Assembly (NCBI GenBank): GCA_947447155.1
Contig: CANFIN010000005.1
Location: forward strand, 1 to 59,511
Reading direction: 5' to 3'
Source: Bacteroidota bacterium
GTDB taxonomy: Bacteria > Bacteroidota > Bacteroidia > AKYH767-A > OLB10
DNA: 59,511 bases
Shown piece by piece: positions 231-5,690 of this stretch. A program made the position numbers and the translations under genes. Position 1 is the stretch's first letter; every line of letters begins with the position of its first letter. Under the pieces are notes generated by a model. The model searched no databases, was not told where the DNA came from, and saw only the letters and a program-made list of their open reading frames with translations.

Positions 231-1754
231 ATGAAAACAAAATCAATTATCGCAGCGCTATTATTCGCTGCAAGCAGTGCTTTTGCACAAGTGCCTTCGT
301 ATGTACCGACTAGCGGACTCGTAGGTTGGTGGCCATTTAATGGCAATGCGAATGATGAGAGTGGGAATGGGAATAATGGGACAGTGAATGGAGCAACGCT
401 GACGATTGATAGATTGGGCAATTCAAATGGTGCTTATTATTTTTCAAGTAATGGTTGTGGGACAAGAATAGATGTTAATGTAAATACAACATCTATTCAA
501 TCGGGATTAACGATTTCAATATGGGCATTAAAAGCCTCAAGTGGATGTATTGGTCCTAGGATTTTAGAGTTTGGGCCAACAGCTGGAAATATAGGAGATG
601 TTCAGTGGATTTGGGATAATTCGAATGGTACTAGGTTTGGCGCTTGCTCTTCTACAGGAACCGCTTATAATTCAAGTTTTACTCCTGTGTTAAATAATAC
701 TTGGACACATTTAGTTTTTACTAATGATGGTTCTATAGCTAAGTTCTATCAGGATGGAGACTTGATAAATAGTATTGTTGTTACGAGTGGTTCACCAAGA
801 ATGGCGAGCAATGGCTGTTTTGGCCGCATGAATCATCCTGCCTACGATGCATTTAATGGTAAACTCGACGACATCGGTATCTGGAACCGAGCACTTACAC
901 AACAAGAAATTACTGCATTATACAATGCGCAATCATGTACAGGAACAGGCGCTATCACCGCTGATGGCCCAACCACTTTCTGCGCAGGCAACTATGTTAA
1001 CTTAAAAAGTGATGTAGTGGGTGGCACCTACCAATGGAAAAAGAATGGAGTGAACATTACTACTAACGCAACATCACGTACATACAAAGCAACTGCAACG
1101 GGTTCTTATACTTGTGTGGCTACTTGTAACGGTACTGCATTAATGAGCAATGATATTCAGGTGACATCACAAACCAATGCAGCAGTAACGCTTACGGCAA
1201 GCGGCGCTACTTCGTTCTGCGCTGGAGATAGCGTTACTTTAAATGCAACTAATCTTGGTAGTGGTTACAGCGTGCAATGGTATCGCACAAATATTTCTAT
1301 GCAAGGAGCTACTAACTATTCGGTGGTAGTAAAACAACCAGGCACCTACAAAACAATAACAAAAAATCTTTCTAACGGATGTTCACGTATTAGCAGTGGC
1401 TCAATCATAACTGCGGTTAATTGTCGTATGAGCAATCCTGATATTATTGCTGTAGACCCTGTGAGTGATGAAATCCCAGCAACTAAATTAGGCAACAGCA
1501 CAGAAACAACTATGCATTTATTCCCTAACCCTAATGCAGGCTCTTTCACATTAGAGTATGATGGCATAGAAGCAGATTTTGAAGTGCAAGTAGTTAATAC
1601 AATGGGTCAGGTTATTTACAATGATATTATCCCATCTAACGATAAGCATTTAAAAACTACTATCAACTTAGGAGACAACATGCAAAAAGGTGTTTATGTC
1701 GTTCGCATTATCAATGGTGAGAACGTACAGGAGTCGAAGGTGATGTTGCAGTAG
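231..1754 (+). CDS. Secreted LamG-like jellyroll protein with Ig-like repeats and T9SS type A C-terminal sorting domain
   Basis: Signal peptide (AASSAFA/Q). LamG signatures GLVGWWPFNGNANDESGNGNNG and FNGKLDDIGIWNRALT. Two 'GxTxFCAG...YQW/VQW' Ig-like units. CTD LFPNPNAG...GVYVVRI...KVMLQ. Confidence 0.85.
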   Translation: MKTKSIIAALLFAASSAFAQVPSYVPTSGLVGWWPFNGNANDESGNGNNGTVNGATLTIDRLGNSNGAYYFSSNGCGTRIDVNVNTTSIQSGLTISIWALKASSGCIGPRILEFGPTAGNIGDVQWIWDNSNGTRFGACSSTGTAYNSSFTPVLNNTWTHLVFTNDGSIAKFYQDGDLINSIVVTSGSPRMASNGCFGRMNHPAYDAFNGKLDDIGIWNRALTQQEITALYNAQSCTGTGAITADGPTTFCAGNYVNLKSDVVGGTYQWKKNGVNITTNATSRTYKATATGSYTCVATCNGTALMSNDIQVTSQTNAAVTLTASGATSFCAGDSVTLNATNLGSGYSVQWYRTNISMQGATNYSVVVKQPGTYKTITKNLSNGCSRISSGSIITAVNCRMSNPDIIAVDPVSDEIPATKLGNSTETTMHLFPNPNAGSFTLEYDGIEADFEVQVVNTMGQVIYNDIIPSNDKHLKTTINLGDNMQKGVYVVRIINGENVQESKVMLQ

Positions 1755-1775
1755 TGTTGTTTAAGAAATAGTTTT

Positions 1776-1803
1776 AAGGAGGTCGATGGGCCTCCTTTTT
1801 TTT
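1776..1803 (+). terminator. Rho-independent terminator
   Basis: AAGGAGGTC-GATG-GGCCTCCTT stem followed by a T run, 21 nt after the stop of 231..1754. Confidence 0.8.
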
Positions 1804-1813
1804 GGCTAATCTG

Positions 1814-1911
1814 TAGCAGGGTAGGGAATTACATGAAGCAGGGTAGGGTTTAAACCCTACCCTGCGCAATCATGTATAAATATCGCAGGGTGGGGATTAA
1901 TCCCCACCCTG
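1814..1911. repeat. REP-like GTAG/GTGG palindrome cluster (right of the LamG gene)
   Basis: Half copy TAGCAGGGTAGGGA at 1814-1827. Perfect 28-bp palindrome GCAGGGTAGGGTTT|AAACCCTACCCTGC at 1838-1865. Perfect 26-bp palindrome CAGGGTGGGGATT|AATCCCCACCCTG at 1886-1911. Confidence 0.8.
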
Positions 1912-1938
1912 TTCATCAATTCTATTATCATTTCAAAT

Positions 1939-2056
1939 TAAAAAAACAGGATTTTTCAGAACCCATTTTTCATAATTTTTATTTTTCAATTTTAATTTTA
2001 TCTCGTAAAATAAAATTAGACTGGAAAAATTCGGAATCGAATTCCGAATTTTTCCA
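1939..2056 (+). repeat. Left copy of ~117-bp imperfect direct repeat flanking the AAA ATPase gene; ends in a 16-bp-arm inverted repeat
   Basis: Aligns by eye with 3233-3351 (shared CCATTTTTC.TAATTTT, CTCGTAAAA.TAAAATT, GGAAAAATTCGGAATCG.ATTCCGAATTTTTCC). Inverted repeat TGGAAAAATTCGGAAT-CGA-ATTCCGAATTTTTCCA at 2022-2056. Confidence 0.9.
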
Positions 2057-2064
2057 TATATTTG
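2057..2064 (+). promoter_or_regulatory. -7 element TATATTTG, probable leaderless promoter of the AAA ATPase gene
   Basis: TAnnTTTG consensus directly after the palindrome and 4 nt before the ATG at 2069. Confidence 0.75.
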
Positions 2065-2068
2065 CGGC

Positions 2069-3229
2069 ATGGTACAAAGGATAGCAAAAAAGAAATTAAT
2101 TGATCTTGCCTCCAAGTTTAAGGCGGTTGCTGTTATTGGAGCGCGTCAGTCGGGGAAGACCACACTCATCAAACAGGTATTTAAAAATAAGCCTTATGTT
2201 TCGATGGAGAATCCTGATACGCGACATTTTGCGATTGAAGATCCGCGAGGATTTTTATCGTCGTTTCCGAAAGGAGCCATCCTTGATGAGGTGCAACGTG
2301 TGCCACAACTATTTTCATACTTACAAGAGATTCTCGATGACCAACGAGCAAAAGGATTGTTTATCCTTTCCGGTTCAAACAATTTTTTACTTCAACAAAA
2401 TATCTCGCAAACATTGGCTGGCCGTGTAGGATACTTGCAGCTACTCCCATTTTCTATTAGTGAGTTAAGTAAGAGTAAACTATTAGCAGCAAGCGATGAT
2501 GCCTTAATGCTGAAAGGGTTTTATCCGCCTGTATATGATCAGAAAATTCCTTTTGGTGATTGGTGTCCTAATTATATCAGCACCTATATTGAAAGAGATG
2601 TGCGCCAAATAAAAAACATAACCGACCTTATTGTATTTGGAAGGTTTATGAAACTACTCGCAGGTAGAAACGGACAAGAATTGAACTATAGTTCACTATC
2701 GATAGAAACGGGTGTAGATATGAAAACGATACAATCGTGGGTGGGAGTATTAGAAAGCAGCTTTATCATTTACCTATTAAAGCCACACCATAATAACTTC
2801 AATAAAACGATTGTAAAACGTCCTAAGCTGTATTTCTACGACACATCGATTGTTTGTTCCTTGCTAGGAATTCGAAATGTAGCGCAGATAAAAAACCATC
2901 CACTACGCGGAGCCATCTTCGAAGGAATGGTGATTACAGAGTTGTTAAAGAACAGAACCAATGCAGGCAAGCCTGTTAATTTATCGTTTTGGCGAGATAA
3001 AACAGGAAGAGAGATTGATGTTATTGTTGACAATGGCAACACTCAGTTTCCAATTGAGATAAAATCAGGTAAAACAATTCATGATGAGTTTTTGAAGAAT
3101 ATCGAATATTGGAAATCAATGAGTGGGTTCAAAAAAGGACTTGTATTATATGCAGGAAAAGAAAATCAGAAGAGAAGCAAAGGAACCGATATTTTAAACT
3201 GGAGAGCACTTTCAGAATTAGATTTGTGA
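2069..3229 (+). CDS. AAA_14/DUF4143-type ATP-binding protein (P-loop ATPase, winged helix, C-terminal PD-(D/E)xK-like domain)
   Basis: Walker A GARQSGKT, Walker B ILDEVQ, ILSGS, TLAGR, TYIERDVR. HTH-like LNYSSLSIETGVDMKTIQSWVGVLE. KRPKLYFYD. C-terminal FWRD..GREIDVIV...PIEIKSG. Confidence 0.9.
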   Translation: MVQRIAKKKLIDLASKFKAVAVIGARQSGKTTLIKQVFKNKPYVSMENPDTRHFAIEDPRGFLSSFPKGAILDEVQRVPQLFSYLQEILDDQRAKGLFILSGSNNFLLQQNISQTLAGRVGYLQLLPFSISELSKSKLLAASDDALMLKGFYPPVYDQKIPFGDWCPNYISTYIERDVRQIKNITDLIVFGRFMKLLAGRNGQELNYSSLSIETGVDMKTIQSWVGVLESSFIIYLLKPHHNNFNKTIVKRPKLYFYDTSIVCSLLGIRNVAQIKNHPLRGAIFEGMVITELLKNRTNAGKPVNLSFWRDKTGREIDVIVDNGNTQFPIEIKSGKTIHDEFLKNIEYWKSMSGFKKGLVLYAGKENQKRSKGTDILNWRALSELDL

Positions 3230-3232
3230 TGA

Positions 3233-3351
3233 TAAAAAAGGCTATTTTTTGGAAGCCATTTTTCGTAATTTTAAATTTTCGATTTTCATTTCACCTCGTA
3301 AAAATAAAATTGATCGGAAAAATTCGGAATCGGATTCCGAATTTTTCCGAT
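3233..3351 (+). repeat. Right copy of the direct repeat; ends in a 19-bp-arm inverted repeat
   Basis: Starts 3-4 nt after the ATPase stop. Inverted repeat ATCGGAAAAATTCGGAATC-G-GATTCCGAATTTTTCCGAT at 3313-3351. No TAnnTTTG follows it. Confidence 0.9.
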
Positions 3352-3392
3352 GTTATTAAACAAACAGAATTATGTTTGCCTGCAATGTATGT

Positions 3393-3599
3393 TTATAGAT
3401 CCTTCTTTTTATTCCAAATAAAGAAATAACCAACTCCTAAAATAATAGCCAGTGAAAAAGTAAAGTTGGTAATTAAAAATCCTTGGTCTTGTTCTGTTAA
3501 ATCACCACCACCACGACGTAGTTTAAAAACGAAATAGGATAAAATACATCCGATTACAACAGATGTAATAATGATGATTACACGACGGCGATTTGACAT
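3393..3599 (-). CDS. Small two-TM membrane protein, hypothetical
   Basis: 68 aa with two hydrophobic helices and basic flanks. A minus-strand TATCTTTG (3604-3611) lies 4 nt before its ATG. It fills an otherwise empty gap. Confidence 0.7.
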   Translation of the reverse strand: MSNRRRVIIIITSVVIGCILSYFVFKLRRGGGDLTEQDQGFLITNFTFSLAIILGVGYFFIWNKKKDL

Positions 3600-3650
3600 A
3601 GGTCAAAGATATAAATTCTAATTAAACTTATTTTGCGCTAATTTAGACGC

Positions 3651-5690
3651 ATGTCATTACCTAACGAACCAAACGCTTTAATTCATTGTACGAGTCCTTA
3701 TTTATTGCAGCATGCCTATAACCCGGTGCATTGGCTACCATGGACAAACGATTCATTGCATAAGGCAAAAGAGGAGAATAAGTTAATCATTGTCAGCATT
3801 GGTTATTCTACTTGTCATTGGTGTCATGTAATGGAGCATGAGAGTTTTGAGGACGAGGAAATTGCTACGGTCATGAATAAAAATTATGTTAGCATAAAAG
3901 TAGACCGAGAAGAGCGCCCTGATATTGATAAAATTTACATGGATGCAGTGCAGCTAATGACAGGCAGAGGTGGCTGGCCGCTGAATTGTATTTTGCTTCC
4001 CGATGGTCGCCCGATTTATGGAGGCACCTATTTTCAAAAAGAGCAATGGAGAAATATCTTGTTGCATATTGCAAACCTCTACCGAACAGATCCTGAAAAG
4101 TGCTATAGTTATGCTACGGAATTAACCGAGGGTATCAACAAAATGGAATCTTTTAGGAAAGACGCTACCGTTAGTACACTAAGCCCGATTGACTGGCAGC
4201 AGTTATTTCTGAATTGGTCAGTGAATTTTGATACCGAAGATGGAGGGAATAACCGTTCACCTAAATTTCCGATGCCTTCTAATTACGATTGGATGCTGGA
4301 TTTTTTCTTGTTGCATAAACATGCTTACGCAGGAGAGCATTTGCAGCTTACGCTGAATAAAATGTTGCATGGAGGAATCTATGATCAGCTAGGAGGAGGA
4401 TTCTGTCGTTATAGCACCGACATGCAATGGAAGGTTCCTCACTTTGAAAAAATGTTATATGATAATGCGCAATTACTATCTCTCTATTCAAAAGCGTATG
4501 CTGTTTTTAAAAATGAAAACTATAAAGAAATTGCAAATGGAATTTTAAAGTTCTTACAAGCTGAATTAAAATCTGAATCGGGTTTATTTTATTCAGCACT
4601 CGATGCCGATACAGAAGGCGTGGAAGGTAAATTTTATACGTGGACAGTGGAAGAATTACAACAATTGTTAGAGGAGCAAGAATACATGATTGCTAAGGAA
4701 TATTTCCACTTCGATAAAAAAGGATATTGGGAAGATGAAGTTTATATTCCCTTGCGAAATGAAAATCCTGAACCTATTTATCAGAAGTATCAATTAACAA
4801 AAGAAGAATTTTATTCTTCAATCACGAACATAAAAAGCAAACTATTGGCACAAAGAAACAAACGTGTAAACCCTTCATTAGACAATAAACAGATTGCATG
4901 CTGGAACGGGTTATTATTAAAAGGATTTTCGGATGCCTATCAAGCTACACAGGATGCAACTTTTCTCGAAGAAGCGACTAAATTAGCAGACAGTATAATT
5001 AACCATTTGATTCACGACAATAAAGTGATTCACTCAATAGTCTCAACCTCAGAAAATAATCAAACAGCAAGTCATAACGAAGGCTTTCTAGATGATTACG
5101 CGAGTATCATTGAAGGACTAATTGCTGTTTATCAGATTACTTTTAATGAGCAATATTTGCTACTTGCAAAACAACTATGTGAAACTGCCATCCATAATTT
5201 TAGTACTGAAGGCTCTCCCATCTTCTACTATTCATCAAACACTGCTGAAAAACTAATCAAGCGTAGTATGGAATTACAAGACAATGTTATTCCTTCTTCT
5301 AATGCAATGATGGCGATGAACCTTTATTTACTTTCTCGCTATTTCGATGAGTCCAATTATTTAAAGCGTGCGCAACAAATGCTTGCTCTAGTACAAAAGG
5401 AAATCAATAATACTATTCCGTGGTATAGCAAGTGGGCACAGGTAGCATTGCTAATGGAAAACAGCAAAGAAGAATTAGTGGTGAGTGGACCATCAGCGAA
5501 CGAATGGATTCATCAAATTCAAAAAAATTATCGTCCGAATTTAATTTTTTCAGTAGCTCATCAGGATGCTAATTTACCTCTGAATAAAAATCGTTTTAGT
5601 GTAGATAAAACCATTGCCTACCATTGCATTGACAATGCATGCTCCTTACCTATTACCAATTTTAAAGCGCTATCAACACTTTTTAATTAA
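3651..5690 (+). CDS. yyaL: Thioredoxin-domain protein, YyaL/SPATA20 family
   Basis: N-terminal [78 protein letters not shown]. Confidence 0.92.

Follow-up and report, generated by a model that had tools for sequence, protein, structure and literature searches.

A repeat-bounded PDC-S01/DUF4143 ATPase-nuclease gene, its candidate palindromic operator, and the gain and loss of a one-gene cassette

A single gene for an ATPase fused to a nuclease lies among housekeeping genes, with no defence island around it, in the 59,511-nt stretch of Bacteroidota DNA analysed here (the window). It is enclosed between two direct repeats that each end in a long perfect palindrome (Table 1). The question raised by this locus is what such palindromes are doing around such a gene: whether they belong to the protein encoded between them, to the transcription or recombination machinery of the host, or to a repeat that came to bracket the gene by chance. 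The first-pass annotation described direct repeats of about 117 bp bracketing the gene, each ending in a perfect palindrome, and this description is confirmed by alignment of the two copies (1941-2055 and 3234-3348), which extend over 115 nt with 82% identity when ungapped and 84% mean column identity when one 4-nt indel is allowed, the arms of both palindromes, 16 and 19 bp long, being 100% complementary. The ATG at 2069 follows the end of the left palindrome by 12 nt, and the right repeat begins 4-5 nt past the stop codon, which ends at 3229. This 115-nt repeat is the longest repeat family of the window, and its palindromes are the longest two of only 9 with arms of at least 12 bp. Their 15-nt half-site occurs 4 times in 59.5 kb, every time within the two palindromes, against an expectation of 0.39, a count of 4 being reached in none of 100 shuffles.

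Table 1. Features of the ATPase-nuclease cassette, with positions given in the window
Feature	Position	Strand	Remark
AT-rich segment, left copy of the 115-nt direct repeat	1941..2021	+	repeat family D1; lineage-specific
Left perfect palindrome, 16-bp arms, 3-nt centre	2022..2056	.	proposed operator of the ATPase-nuclease gene
Bacteroidota-type -7 promoter box, TAnnTTTG form	2057..2064	+	abuts the left palindrome, ends 4 nt before the ATG
386-aa protein: AAA_14 ATPase, predicted winged helix, DUF4143 PD-(D/E)xK nuclease	2069..3229	+	Pfam, PADLOC PDC-S01
AT-rich segment, right copy of the direct repeat	3234..3312	+	repeat comparison
Right perfect palindrome, 19-bp arms, 1-nt centre	3313..3351	.	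second site, behind the gene

The dyad is extended differently in the left and right copies, a difference in which the first-pass annotation had seen a hint of selected symmetry, and one true compensatory change is indeed present where the extensions adjoin the shared arms, T..A on the left and C..G on the right. The annotation had also seen no integrase or transposase nearby, and this is upheld for the 49 window ORFs that we scanned, none of which encodes either enzyme, a Y1 transposase included. Just upstream of the cassette, at 1812-1912, are REP-like palindromes unrelated to those discussed here. In an Rfam search of 1700-3700 no match came close to a gathering cut-off; the highest, on this REP-like region, scored 26.5 bits where 51 is needed.

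The encoded protein is, by its profile matches, a member of the PDC-S01/DUF4143 (COG1373) candidate phage-defence family. Pfam assigns AAA_14 (1.5e-28, 99.8 bits, cut-off 27) and DUF4143 (1.6e-47, 161.7 bits, cut-off 28.1) to the ORF, and the PADLOC PDC-S01 model PDLC04790 matches residues 2-382 at 3e-97. Across 37 sequences, G24, G29, K30, T32, D73 and E74 of the Walker A and Walker B motifs are invariant, as are the nuclease triad columns D317/E330/K332. No match was returned by a single-protein sequence search of the PDB, and a profile search of the same database gave P-loop matches and otherwise only weak helix-turn-helix and nuclease matches. The NCBIfam search yielded nothing meaningful, and the ESM Atlas, queried with the stored homologue P0010, returned only clusters of the protein's own family. 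PDC-S01 is ranked in a recent study as the fourth most common defence across prokaryotes, described there as an ATPase fused to a PD-(D/E)xK domain, and placed among candidates most of which still await validation (PMC12988326), and recent survey work names it the most frequent single locus in rumen genomes. In the literature searched, no cis-element, promoter layout or flanking repeat is described for the DUF4143/COG1373/PDC-S01 family, and no mechanism, ligand or regulation is given for PDC-S01. The window gene also stands apart from PDC-S01 as a defence candidate in its surroundings, which are housekeeping genes in place of a defence island.

Exact matches to the 20 specified bases of the core were sought in 185,579 species genomes and found at 92 stretches, representing 86 distinct places, and at no fewer than 49 of the 86 a DUF4143 homologue adjoins the palindrome, with 24-96% identity and with contig labels that span several phyla (43 of these places have a homologue with at least 250 aligned residues, and at the other 6 the gene is truncated by the end of the locus). 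AAA_14 with DUF4143 is the sole recurrent family near the palindromes (35 of 117 ORFs). Because the scan demanded an exact core, conservation of the core is a matter of construction, and evidence independent of that requirement comes solely from association, position and the outer arms. Position was assessed with a relaxed match, allowing up to 4 mismatches in 20, around 34 complete and non-redundant genes. All 34 have a site upstream of the start, at a distance of 16-111 nt in 33 of them and of 180 nt in the last (L028), and none has a site within the gene, while a second site lies behind the stop in 17. The gene and its palindrome were found in at least 8 chromosomal contexts, and one tight protein clade joins contigs labelled Melainabacteria, Bacillota, Bacteroidota and Planctomycetota with an identical arm class throughout. 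From these distributions, the gene seems to travel between genomes along with its palindrome.

The first-pass annotation had anticipated further palindrome-flanked ATPase genes, which the recurrence of the pair in contigs labelled as several phyla bears out, and had proposed asking whether homologues each have a palindrome of their own and whether they have it on both sides. The latter is true of the 17 genes with a downstream site and not of the other 17. As to the former, 22 independently chosen plasmid or phage-contig homologues divide into 9 with a different palindrome, significant at the start codon, and 13 with no upstream palindrome above chance, and the trait is therefore not universal in the DUF4143 family. 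A blastn search of the palindrome against plasmid and phage collections found no match, a result to which the low-complexity filter may have contributed.

The arms beyond the searched core offer a separate line of evidence. At positions 12-18 they are complementary in 97, 97, 91, 90, 84, 76 and 64% of cases, falling to 17-42% further out, and at the innermost position, right beside the centre, the two bases pair in 54% of sites. Two-sided changes number 258 cells as against 127.5 ± 8.3 after shuffling, and the covariation score is 0.299 as against 0.120 in shuffled and 0.04-0.084 in slid controls, the observed value being reached in 0 of 500 shuffles in either case. Judged by this covariation, the outer arms, which lie outside the searched core, remain symmetric, and the symmetry is selected. 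A flip/flop of the central triplet, in which the two centres would be reverse complements, was considered and rejected as a general rule; it is true of L058 and L036 and not of the window, L002, L019, L030 or L055.

On the protein side, position 219 of the window protein is occupied by K or N in all 32 of the 32 proteins adjoining the canonical core, and among 13 with another palindrome or none it is K in 2 and a different residue in 11. Members with other palindromes are interspersed among canonical-core members in the protein tree, but the comparison comes down to 4 independent contrasts on well-supported branches (sign test p at least 0.125), and the helix to which the residue is assigned, predicted around residues 215-226, comes from weak PDB profile matches (E 0.018-0.6); the test of whether this predicted-helix residue tracks palindrome type is underpowered.

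The Bacteroidota -7 box is placed at -12 to -5 in a passage of PMC9723704, and a box of this kind ends 3-5 nt before the start codon in 20 of 30 Bacteroidota-type homologues, compared with 4 of 42 other ORF starts in the window. The box of the window gene stops 4 nt short of the ATG, a spacing that implies a leaderless mRNA with its predicted start at the ATG. At Firmicutes-type loci, inspected by eye, the palindrome overlaps the -35 box or comes after the -10 box. A Bacteroidota -33 TTTG box inside the right arm was tried as a further promoter element and discarded for its misfitting spacing. The place of the left palindrome on a leaderless promoter had been missed by the first-pass annotation.

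The reading that we favour, and hold to be true with slightly better than even confidence, is that the palindrome is the adjacent protein's own DNA site and operator on a leaderless promoter, and that the paired repeats are at once scar and substrate of the gain and loss of a one-gene cassette. Under this reading the AAA_14/DUF4143 protein would recognise the neighbouring palindrome of 35-39 bp as its cognate site, and the left palindrome sits directly on the promoter of the protein's own gene. Because the transcript from that promoter is predicted to start at the ATG, binding of the protein to this palindrome, as a symmetric dimer or higher oligomer, would be expected to shut off the protein's own gene, amounting to autoregulation. 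The right palindrome would close the unit, with looping, a roadblock or termination as candidate roles, and the two copies together would form a direct repeat across which the gene could drop out, one palindrome remaining. Insertions of this ATPase-nuclease family come with long flanking duplications, and the duplicated unit in the window is 115 nt long because, on this account, an AT-rich leader of 80 nt was duplicated along with the palindrome.

Palindromic operators bound by a winged-helix regulator, through which defence or addiction genes are autoregulated, are familiar from BrxR/CapW-type regulators and from toxin-antitoxin operators. The window locus is like BrxR/CapW-type systems in having a dyad-symmetric site across the core promoter of the gene to be controlled, and unlike them in that regulator and effector would be one polypeptide. 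It also departs from usual operators: its dyad, with arms of 16-23 bp, far exceeds theirs in length and perfection, recurs behind the gene, and persists solo where there is no gene.

This last property could point away from the protein altogether, to palindromes that are intrinsic or bidirectional terminators or insulators of the host, between which the gene merely happens to lie, flanked by other transcription units. Palindromes that stand alone equal the gene-linked ones in perfection (mean arm 16.07, n=30, vs 15.96, n=51), which hints at a function independent of the adjacent gene, although ascertainment likewise favours intact sites. Where a solo site has a large ORF on both sides (n=22), it adjoins at least one gene end in 21 cases and lies between divergent starts in 1, and both palindromes of the window come out as terminator-like in a consensus scan, with 5-6 G-C pairs of 16-18 and weak tails. 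On the other hand, the ordinary terminators of the window have a G+C-rich stem between A and T runs, whereas much of the T-run of the cassette palindromes is inside the stem, and the symmetry often reaches to a single central base (54%), which a hairpin loop would not need. Nor would a terminator be expected to keep one 20-base core across contigs labelled as several phyla, upstream of genes of a single protein family and in a fixed promoter position. We consider the terminator explanation improbable.

The AT-rich part of the repeat, about 80 nt, is shared at 60-93% conservation by 8 copies, those of the window, L057, L037, L070 and L088, and more distant loci lack it; the first-pass annotation had overlooked this lineage-specificity. 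The cassette layout is retained in four related genomes at 76-85% DNA identity, and the right-hand palindrome is perfect in all copies of the lineage although the flanks have diverged, one palindrome (L070_A) carrying a compensatory double change. Paralogous copies of the repeat are no more alike than orthologous ones in the window lineage, and concerted evolution was thus not seen there. Inheritance of the cassette within the window's own lineage looks vertical, with no empty allele seen there among the scanned loci, and the downstream palindrome, as far as these alignments tell, is maintained in that lineage. The suggestion that the repeats might be amplified is met by a copy number that does vary, L070 having two downstream copies.

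Bracketing of the gene by chance, through a local duplication that happened once or through a dispersed REP- or MITE-like repeat, could draw on the lineage-specific AT-rich 80 nt and on the unrelated REP-like palindromes just upstream. The first-pass annotation had reasoned that a one-off duplication would leave close homologues without a downstream copy; the layout kept in four related genomes contradicts this, and so does the presence of sites on both sides of the gene in half of the homologues examined. REP/BIME sequences with RAYT, the hairpins of IS200/IS605 and MITEs are multi-copy elements linked to a Y1 transposase. The cassette resembles them in having perfect hairpin-forming palindromes in intergenic DNA and differs in having only two sites in the window, one or two exact-core sites per listed contig, no Y1 transposase in the window, and a tie to one ATPase-nuclease family. 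Exact-core scan, lineage comparison and position counts already contradict a chance bracketing, which we regard as scarcely credible.

Elsewhere the gene has come and gone. Three empty/filled pairs in relatives of the window locus are precise, with one palindrome kept (L010 vs L058, L022 vs L002, and L029 vs L043 and L052), and these are the 'empty' alleles with a single repeat that the first-pass annotation had predicted; comparison of the paired loci shows gene loss that leaves one palindrome. Homology stops exactly at the palindrome edge in L015/L068, which are 92% identical, and in L046/L063, which are 99% identical, and C-terminal remnants of the gene adjoin solo palindromes in L007, L023 and L062. 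At the DeoC site (L002 vs L030) the ATPase genes are 77% and the flanking genes 79-81% identical, a similarity in divergence that fits ancestral presence and later loss. Flanking direct repeats are found at 22 of 35 loci of the palindrome set. The one mobility gene noted around the scanned sites is the XerC/D-like neighbour of L010/L058. In three Algoriphagus loci (L011, L041, L032) the last 84 nt of prfC and its terminator are duplicated on either side of the palindrome and ATPase gene, a target duplication of about 125 nt with no mobility gene within the 4-kb loci. The annotation's notion of a homing-like element fails in the strict sense, because a homing endonuclease gene would split its recognition site, and here intact palindromes flank the gene on one or both sides and persist in each empty allele.

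If the protein itself were the agent of these events, the locus would be a self-mobilising one-gene element, in which the ATPase-nuclease cuts at or beside the palindrome and the break drives insertion or excision, by long duplication or by palindrome-by-palindrome recombination, with solo palindromes as footprints or landing pads. Such an element is compatible with the operator role of the palindrome, and would be consistent with the precision of the three empty/filled pairs, with breakpoints that recur at palindrome edges in closely related genomes, with palindrome-anchored deletions that leave C-terminal remnants, and with the Algoriphagus duplication. The frequency of flanking repeats, the invariant nuclease triad, the variety of chromosomal contexts and the want of an integrase or transposase in the window are in keeping with it as well. 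Yet the listed contigs have only one or two exact-core sites each, and therefore nothing points to proliferation; near-identical cassettes in two different contexts were not seen among the scanned loci; and only 6 of 50,697 phage records have a homologue. The DeoC-site genes are about as diverged as their flanks, the window lineage looks vertical with no concerted evolution of its repeats, and ordinary RecA activity or slippage between repeats of 35-45 bp could by itself yield precise deletions. We think self-mobilisation unlikely on balance, if a serious candidate. The fuller proposal, that PDC-S01/DUF4143 genes in general are autonomous one-gene mobile cassettes that combine palindrome recognition by the winged helix, self-repression, cutting at the edge, insertion with long duplication and precise excision, we would put forward as doubtful speculation, a little less probable again.

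Mobility could instead be supplied from outside. In integron attC cassettes and in the pdif modules of Acinetobacter, similar and partly palindromic sites stand on either side of a gene, and the empty form keeps one of them. A promoter-proximal gene between like sites, with one site retained in the empty arrangement, fits such systems, and the palindromes could on this account be sites of a host site-specific recombinase, Xer-like or of the serine type, that moves the gene as an integron-cassette- or pdif-like module. The palindrome of L010/L058 is indeed 60 nt behind a gene for an XerC/D-type recombinase, and a recombinase gene adjoins 4 of the first 12 plasmid homologues examined. Neither the window nor most loci contain a recombinase, however, and no integrase, no GTTRRRY-type core at the repeat ends and no array of different genes is visible in the window as would be expected of integron cassettes, a single gene family being found between the sites. 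The geometry is also unlike that of Xer/dif modules, with a centre of 1-3 nt between arms of 16-19 bp where arms of about 11 bp around a central region of 6-8 bp would be expected, and a host enzyme would not account for a core shared by contigs labelled as several phyla. We judge a host recombinase to be very improbable.

A close parallel for the gain of the gene is found among restriction-modification (RM) systems. Nobusato et al., working earlier on H. pylori, reportedly described RM gene insertion with long target duplication. Furuta et al. 2010 (PMC2853133) describe RM genes inserted between flanking direct repeats of more than 30 bp, with one copy in the other genome and no transposase or integrase. 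This pattern is exactly that of the Algoriphagus loci, with the 3' end of prfC and its terminator duplicated over about 125 nt, and the 115-nt repeat of the window is of the same form. In the RM case, however, the duplicated sequence is arbitrary and peculiar to each site. Such a repeat is found here only in Algoriphagus and not in the window, and at most palindrome loci the family-wide palindrome makes up the repeat or forms its end. The cassette differs further in that the palindrome is also on the promoter of the gene, and in that there is one gene and no methylase.

In any case, the conserved 20-base palindromic core on the promoter is a concrete candidate DNA ligand for PDC-S01. The empty alleles and the Algoriphagus insertion link this family to the still-unexplained insertion with long target duplication, which PDC-S01 would make experimentally tractable with a single gene. 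If PDC-S01 genes were to prove mobile cassettes, they would move by a route that dispenses with transposase and integrase, and the solo palindromes left behind would be both footprints and landing pads. These results bear on whether 'defensome' counts of PDC-S01 measure immunity or selfish DNA.

The gene encoding the ATPase-nuclease stands between two direct repeats that each end in a perfect palindrome, exactly the layout that the first-pass annotation had described. The two copies are 82% identical ungapped and 84% identical with one 4-nt indel; they form the longest repeat family of the window, and among its nine palindromes with arms of at least 12 bp those of the cassette are the longest. 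The half-site occurs four times in the 59.5 kb, always within these two palindromes, against an expectation of 0.39, and none of 100 shuffles gave four. In its host, a member of the Bacteroidota, the cassette is surrounded by genes for a lectin-like protein with a T9SS sorting domain, a DUF255 thioredoxin-like protein and an M13 peptidase. Housekeeping genes (e.g. PheS, PGK, RecQ, TatC, GldH) account for the other 43 large ORFs of the window, and no integrase, transposase or defence gene is found among them.

Features of the cassette, in window positions
Feature	Position	Strand	Description
Direct repeat, left copy	1941-2055		115 nt, on the 5' side of the ORF
Left palindrome	2022-2056		perfect, 16-bp arms, 3-nt centre; ends 12 nt before the ATG
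-7-type promoter box	2057-2064	+	TAnnTTT(G/A) form
ATPase-nuclease ORF	2069-3229	+	386 aa; AAA_14 (1.5e-28) and DUF4143 (1.6e-47)
Direct repeat, right copy	3234-3348		115 nt; begins 4-5 nt past the stop
Right palindrome	3313-3351		perfect, 19-bp arms, 1-nt centre

The window also contains perfect palindromes of another, unrelated family, which are built on CAGGGTAGGG or CAGGGTGGGG and lie at 1-105 and 1812-1912 (examples at 1838-1865 and 1886-1911; seven matches against 0.34 expected); these resemble REP-type intergenic repeats and also occur upstream of the cassette in L057, a syntenic locus. Between the right palindrome and the DUF255 gene is a 68-aa ORF (3393-3599, minus strand), hydrophobic by eye and with no family match, whose DNA is conserved (76-82%) in two further syntenic loci, L037 and L070.

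The pairing of gene and palindrome is conserved well beyond the window. An exact scan of a 596-Gb genome collection with the pattern AATTCGGAAT-N3-ATTCCGAATT, for which by our own arithmetic a random 20-base word would be expected about 0.5 times, returned 92 stretches representing 86 distinct places, since six contigs each gave two overlapping loci (loci from other genomes, plasmids and phage contigs are given L-numbers and keep their own coordinates). A DUF4143 homologue with at least 250 aligned residues (24-96% identity) is present at 43 of these places, including three (L028, L031, L038) where a divergent homologue lies roughly 180-560 nt from the palindrome; at 6 the homologue is truncated by the locus end, 30 are solo palindromes with kilobase flanks, and 7 are loci too short to judge. 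Invariance of the core is imposed by the scan pattern and is not evidence, whereas association, position and outer bases are independent of it. AAA_14 + DUF4143 genes make up 35 of the 117 ORFs near palindromes, and no other family recurs among these beyond shared synteny. Judged by contig titles, the carriers belong to Bacteroidota, Bacillota, Planctomycetota, Pseudomonadota, Chloroflexi, Melainabacteria and Treponema, with isolates of Algoriphagus and Butyrivibrio among them. Such labels can be wrong for metagenome-assembled genomes and need care, because L052 carries the label uncultured Comamonadaceae and yet shares 90% identity with a Flavobacteriales MAG (L043) across 2 kb, probably through a binning or labelling error.

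The downstream copy is maintained in the window's own lineage. All of its syntenic relatives (L057, L036/37, L070 and L088; 76-85% DNA identity) keep the right-hand repeat, which lies about 250 nt past the stop in L037, starts at +209 at the contig end in L057, and in L070 (1996-2445) is present as two tandem copies of the 115-nt repeat, 336 nt apart, behind the ATPase gene, the inner one carrying a compensatory A>T/T>A change that preserves the dyad. Across eight copies the AT-rich part is 60-93% identical, and paralogous copies are no closer to each other than orthologous ones, so the duplication is old and its copies have not been homogenised. The palindrome, in contrast, is perfect in all eight, and this persistence beside a diverged AT-rich part argues that selection maintains the downstream copy; that the arrangement is a one-off duplication or a dispersed repeat is hardly credible. 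The AT-rich 80 nt were not found in loci more distant than these relatives. Within this part, a CCTCGTAAAAT-like block (TCTCGTAAAAT in the left window copy) lies at 1996-2012 and 3289-3306 and at the same place in L057, L037, L070 and L088; six of the eight copies retain it with minor differences.

The dyad symmetry is itself under selection. Over 89 distinct sites, the seven positions outside the searched core are complementary in 97, 97, 91, 90, 84, 76 and 64% of cases, falling to 17-42% farther out, and each of the seven is occupied by three or four Watson-Crick pair types. In covariation tests on an 87-row alignment (A3) with 500 shuffles and slid controls, changes on both sides numbered 258 cells against 127.5 +/- 8.3 in shuffles, and the covariation score was 0.299 against 0.120 (slid controls 0.04-0.084), neither value being reached by any of the 500 shuffles. 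Relaxed copies also show compensatory changes within the core (L039 downstream, L071 upstream, and L070_A, one repeat copy of L070). Symmetry often extends to a single central base, the innermost position being complementary in 54% of sites. Symmetry of this reach would not be needed by a hairpin loop, but would be by a symmetric protein on duplex DNA or by a templated process; the reading of the palindromes as plain terminators is improbable.

By its position, the palindrome lies on the promoter of the gene. In a set of 34 complete, non-redundant genes, scored with a relaxed match of at most 4 mismatches in 20 (leaving out the near-identical L020, L061, L064, L079 and L040, genes cut by the locus end, and L031 and L038), every gene has an upstream site, with a core-to-ATG distance of 16-111 nt, or 180 nt in L028; 17 have a second site at most 450 nt past the stop, and none has a site within the coding sequence. 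Of 30 genes at Bacteroidota-type loci, 20 have a TAnnTTT(G/A) box that ends 3-5 nt 5' of the ATG; the figure for other ORF starts in the window is 4 of 42. As the available text of PMC9723704 places the Bacteroidota -7-type box at -12 to -5, the window transcript is predicted to begin with the first base of the start codon, which would make the mRNA leaderless and place the palindrome at about -13 to -47. In Firmicutes-type loci the palindrome is in classic operator position, its end, by eye, overlapping a -35-like hexamer in L055 and L025 and coming after a -10-like hexamer in L013. Tandem double palindromes stand upstream of the gene in several lineages (L013, L071, L015, L018, L021, L061, L076), one of the pair often being degenerate or carrying compensatory core changes.

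Comparison of related alleles places the borders of gain and loss at the palindrome. The single-palindrome empty alleles that had been predicted from the window exist: the single palindrome of L010 takes the place of the palindrome-gene-palindrome unit of L058, with left and right flanks aligning to the respective junctions, and the same relation holds at a DeoC-SecA site between L022 (empty) and L002 (filled), where L075 is also empty and L030 filled. A third case differs in having no second palindrome: L029 has left flank, palindrome and DEAD-box helicase gene, and L043 and L052 have the ATPase ORF between palindrome and helicase gene. L015 and L068 share a nitroreductase gene and two tandem palindromes at 92% identity and diverge exactly after the second palindrome; between L046 and L063, identity is 99% on the right side of the palindrome, with no relation on the left side; and C-terminal gene fragments follow solo palindromes in L007, L023 and L062. 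Indels are thus bounded by the palindrome; that it serves as a site for a host recombinase is very improbable. Flanking direct repeats of any kind occur at 22 of 35 palindrome-set loci and at 1 of 12 plasmid loci tested. In Algoriphagus (L011, L041, L032) palindrome and ATPase gene are flanked on each side by a copy of the final 84 nt of prfC plus terminator. The two copies are 98% identical in L011, and 83-84% in L041 and L032; the arrangement is an insertion with about 125 nt of target duplication and the palindrome inside the insert.

Several further loci deserve mention. The segment shared by L046 (1989-3159) and L063 (1989-3160), two different Bacteroidales species, is 1.17 kb long and includes a 242-aa ORF; its start coincides exactly with the palindrome, and the DNA on either side of it is unrelated. 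Recent transfer of a module with the palindrome as one border may explain it. The two solo palindromes of one Algoriphagus ratkowskyi genome (L005, L017) belong to a duplicated region (1.18 kb at 84% identity), and each is preceded, at a distance of 68 nt, by a 137-aa ORF without Pfam match. In L035 the ATPase gene (2049-3206) has an in-frame stop 18 codons short of the usual end, and the downstream palindrome is degenerate (3/20 core mismatches).

If the ATPase-nuclease mobilised itself, a stronger reading that we consider doubtful, these gains and losses could be its own work. Against ongoing transposition, only one or two exact-core sites are listed per contig, no near-identical cassette occurs in two different contexts, and the DeoC-site ATPase genes of L002 and L030 are 77% identical, a divergence like that of their flanks (79-81%) and in keeping with a gene that was present ancestrally and lost later.

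Whether the protein could read the palindrome was approached through its sequence. Residues 198-255 have winged-helix features, with weak PDB profile matches to HTH proteins (E 0.018-0.6); residues 274-375 weakly match Can2 and Cas4, and across 37 sequences neither the Walker motifs nor the D317/E330/K332 columns vary. All 32 proteins adjoining the canonical core have K or N at position 219, where the predicted recognition helix starts. The 13 homologues with a different palindrome or none comprise two with K at this position (L095 and L096, which have related palindrome cores) and eleven with T, D, S, L, V, I, P or Q. These 13 are interspersed among canonical proteins in the tree (L102 sister to L008/L050, L094 to L013/L071, L038 to L018/L021, L093 inside a Bacteroidota clade). 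Well-supported branches offer only four independent contrasts, for which the floor of a sign test is p = 0.125; the tracking of palindrome type by residue 219 is no more than suggestive.

The expectation that each homologue has its own palindrome held for a large minority. For 22 homologues chosen solely by protein similarity, of which 20 are plasmid genes and two come from phage-labelled contigs, the best palindrome score in the 80 nt upstream was called significant if reached by at most 1 of 100 shuffles. Nine passed (L093-L097, L102, L105-L107; seven after merging two near-duplicate pairs), all with palindromes ending at most 17 nt from the start and unlike the canonical one in sequence; the other 13, mostly from alpha-proteobacterial plasmids, had nothing above chance upstream. 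In the Treponema plasmid L095 a related palindrome also lies 9 nt past the stop. A serine or tyrosine recombinase gene directly adjoins the DUF4143 gene in 4 of the first 12 plasmid genes examined (L094, L096, L101, L103), and in L010/L058 a XerC/D-type gene is followed after 60 nt by the palindrome. On the Sphingomonas plasmid L101 the ATPase gene is flanked by direct repeats 73 nt (90% identical) and 35 nt long (1227-1366 and 2810-2963), the downstream copies sitting within the 3' part of the adjoining tyrosine recombinase gene.

We lean towards a reading of palindrome and gene as operator plus cassette, in which the winged helix would bind the palindrome as a symmetric oligomer, the bound protein would repress its own leaderless promoter, and the second site would close the unit and supply the repeat across which the gene is lost. 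The unit does not belong with integron cassettes, Xer modules, REP/RAYT elements, IS200/605 elements, MITEs or classical homing genes, a defining feature of each having been tested and not found. Its arrangement behaves like the 'insertion with long target duplication' that the accessible part of PMC2853133 describes for restriction-modification genes, but departs from that class in one defining feature: the repeat is usually the family's own palindrome and not an arbitrary target. By its domains the window gene belongs to PDC-S01, a PADLOC phage-defence candidate family whose model its protein matches at 3e-97, and which the text available from PMC13356809 gives as the most frequent single locus in rumen genomes; no description of a cis-element for the family was found in the literature searched (DUF4143, COG1373, PDC-S01, AAA_14 + palindrome). 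On the reading favoured here, the cassette would be an autoregulated one-gene nuclease unit, with an unusually long, perfect and widely shared putative operator that also marks its borders. It provides a DNA ligand that can be tested, and a possible mechanism of mobility, for a 'defence' family that ranks among the most abundant of those still uncharacterised.
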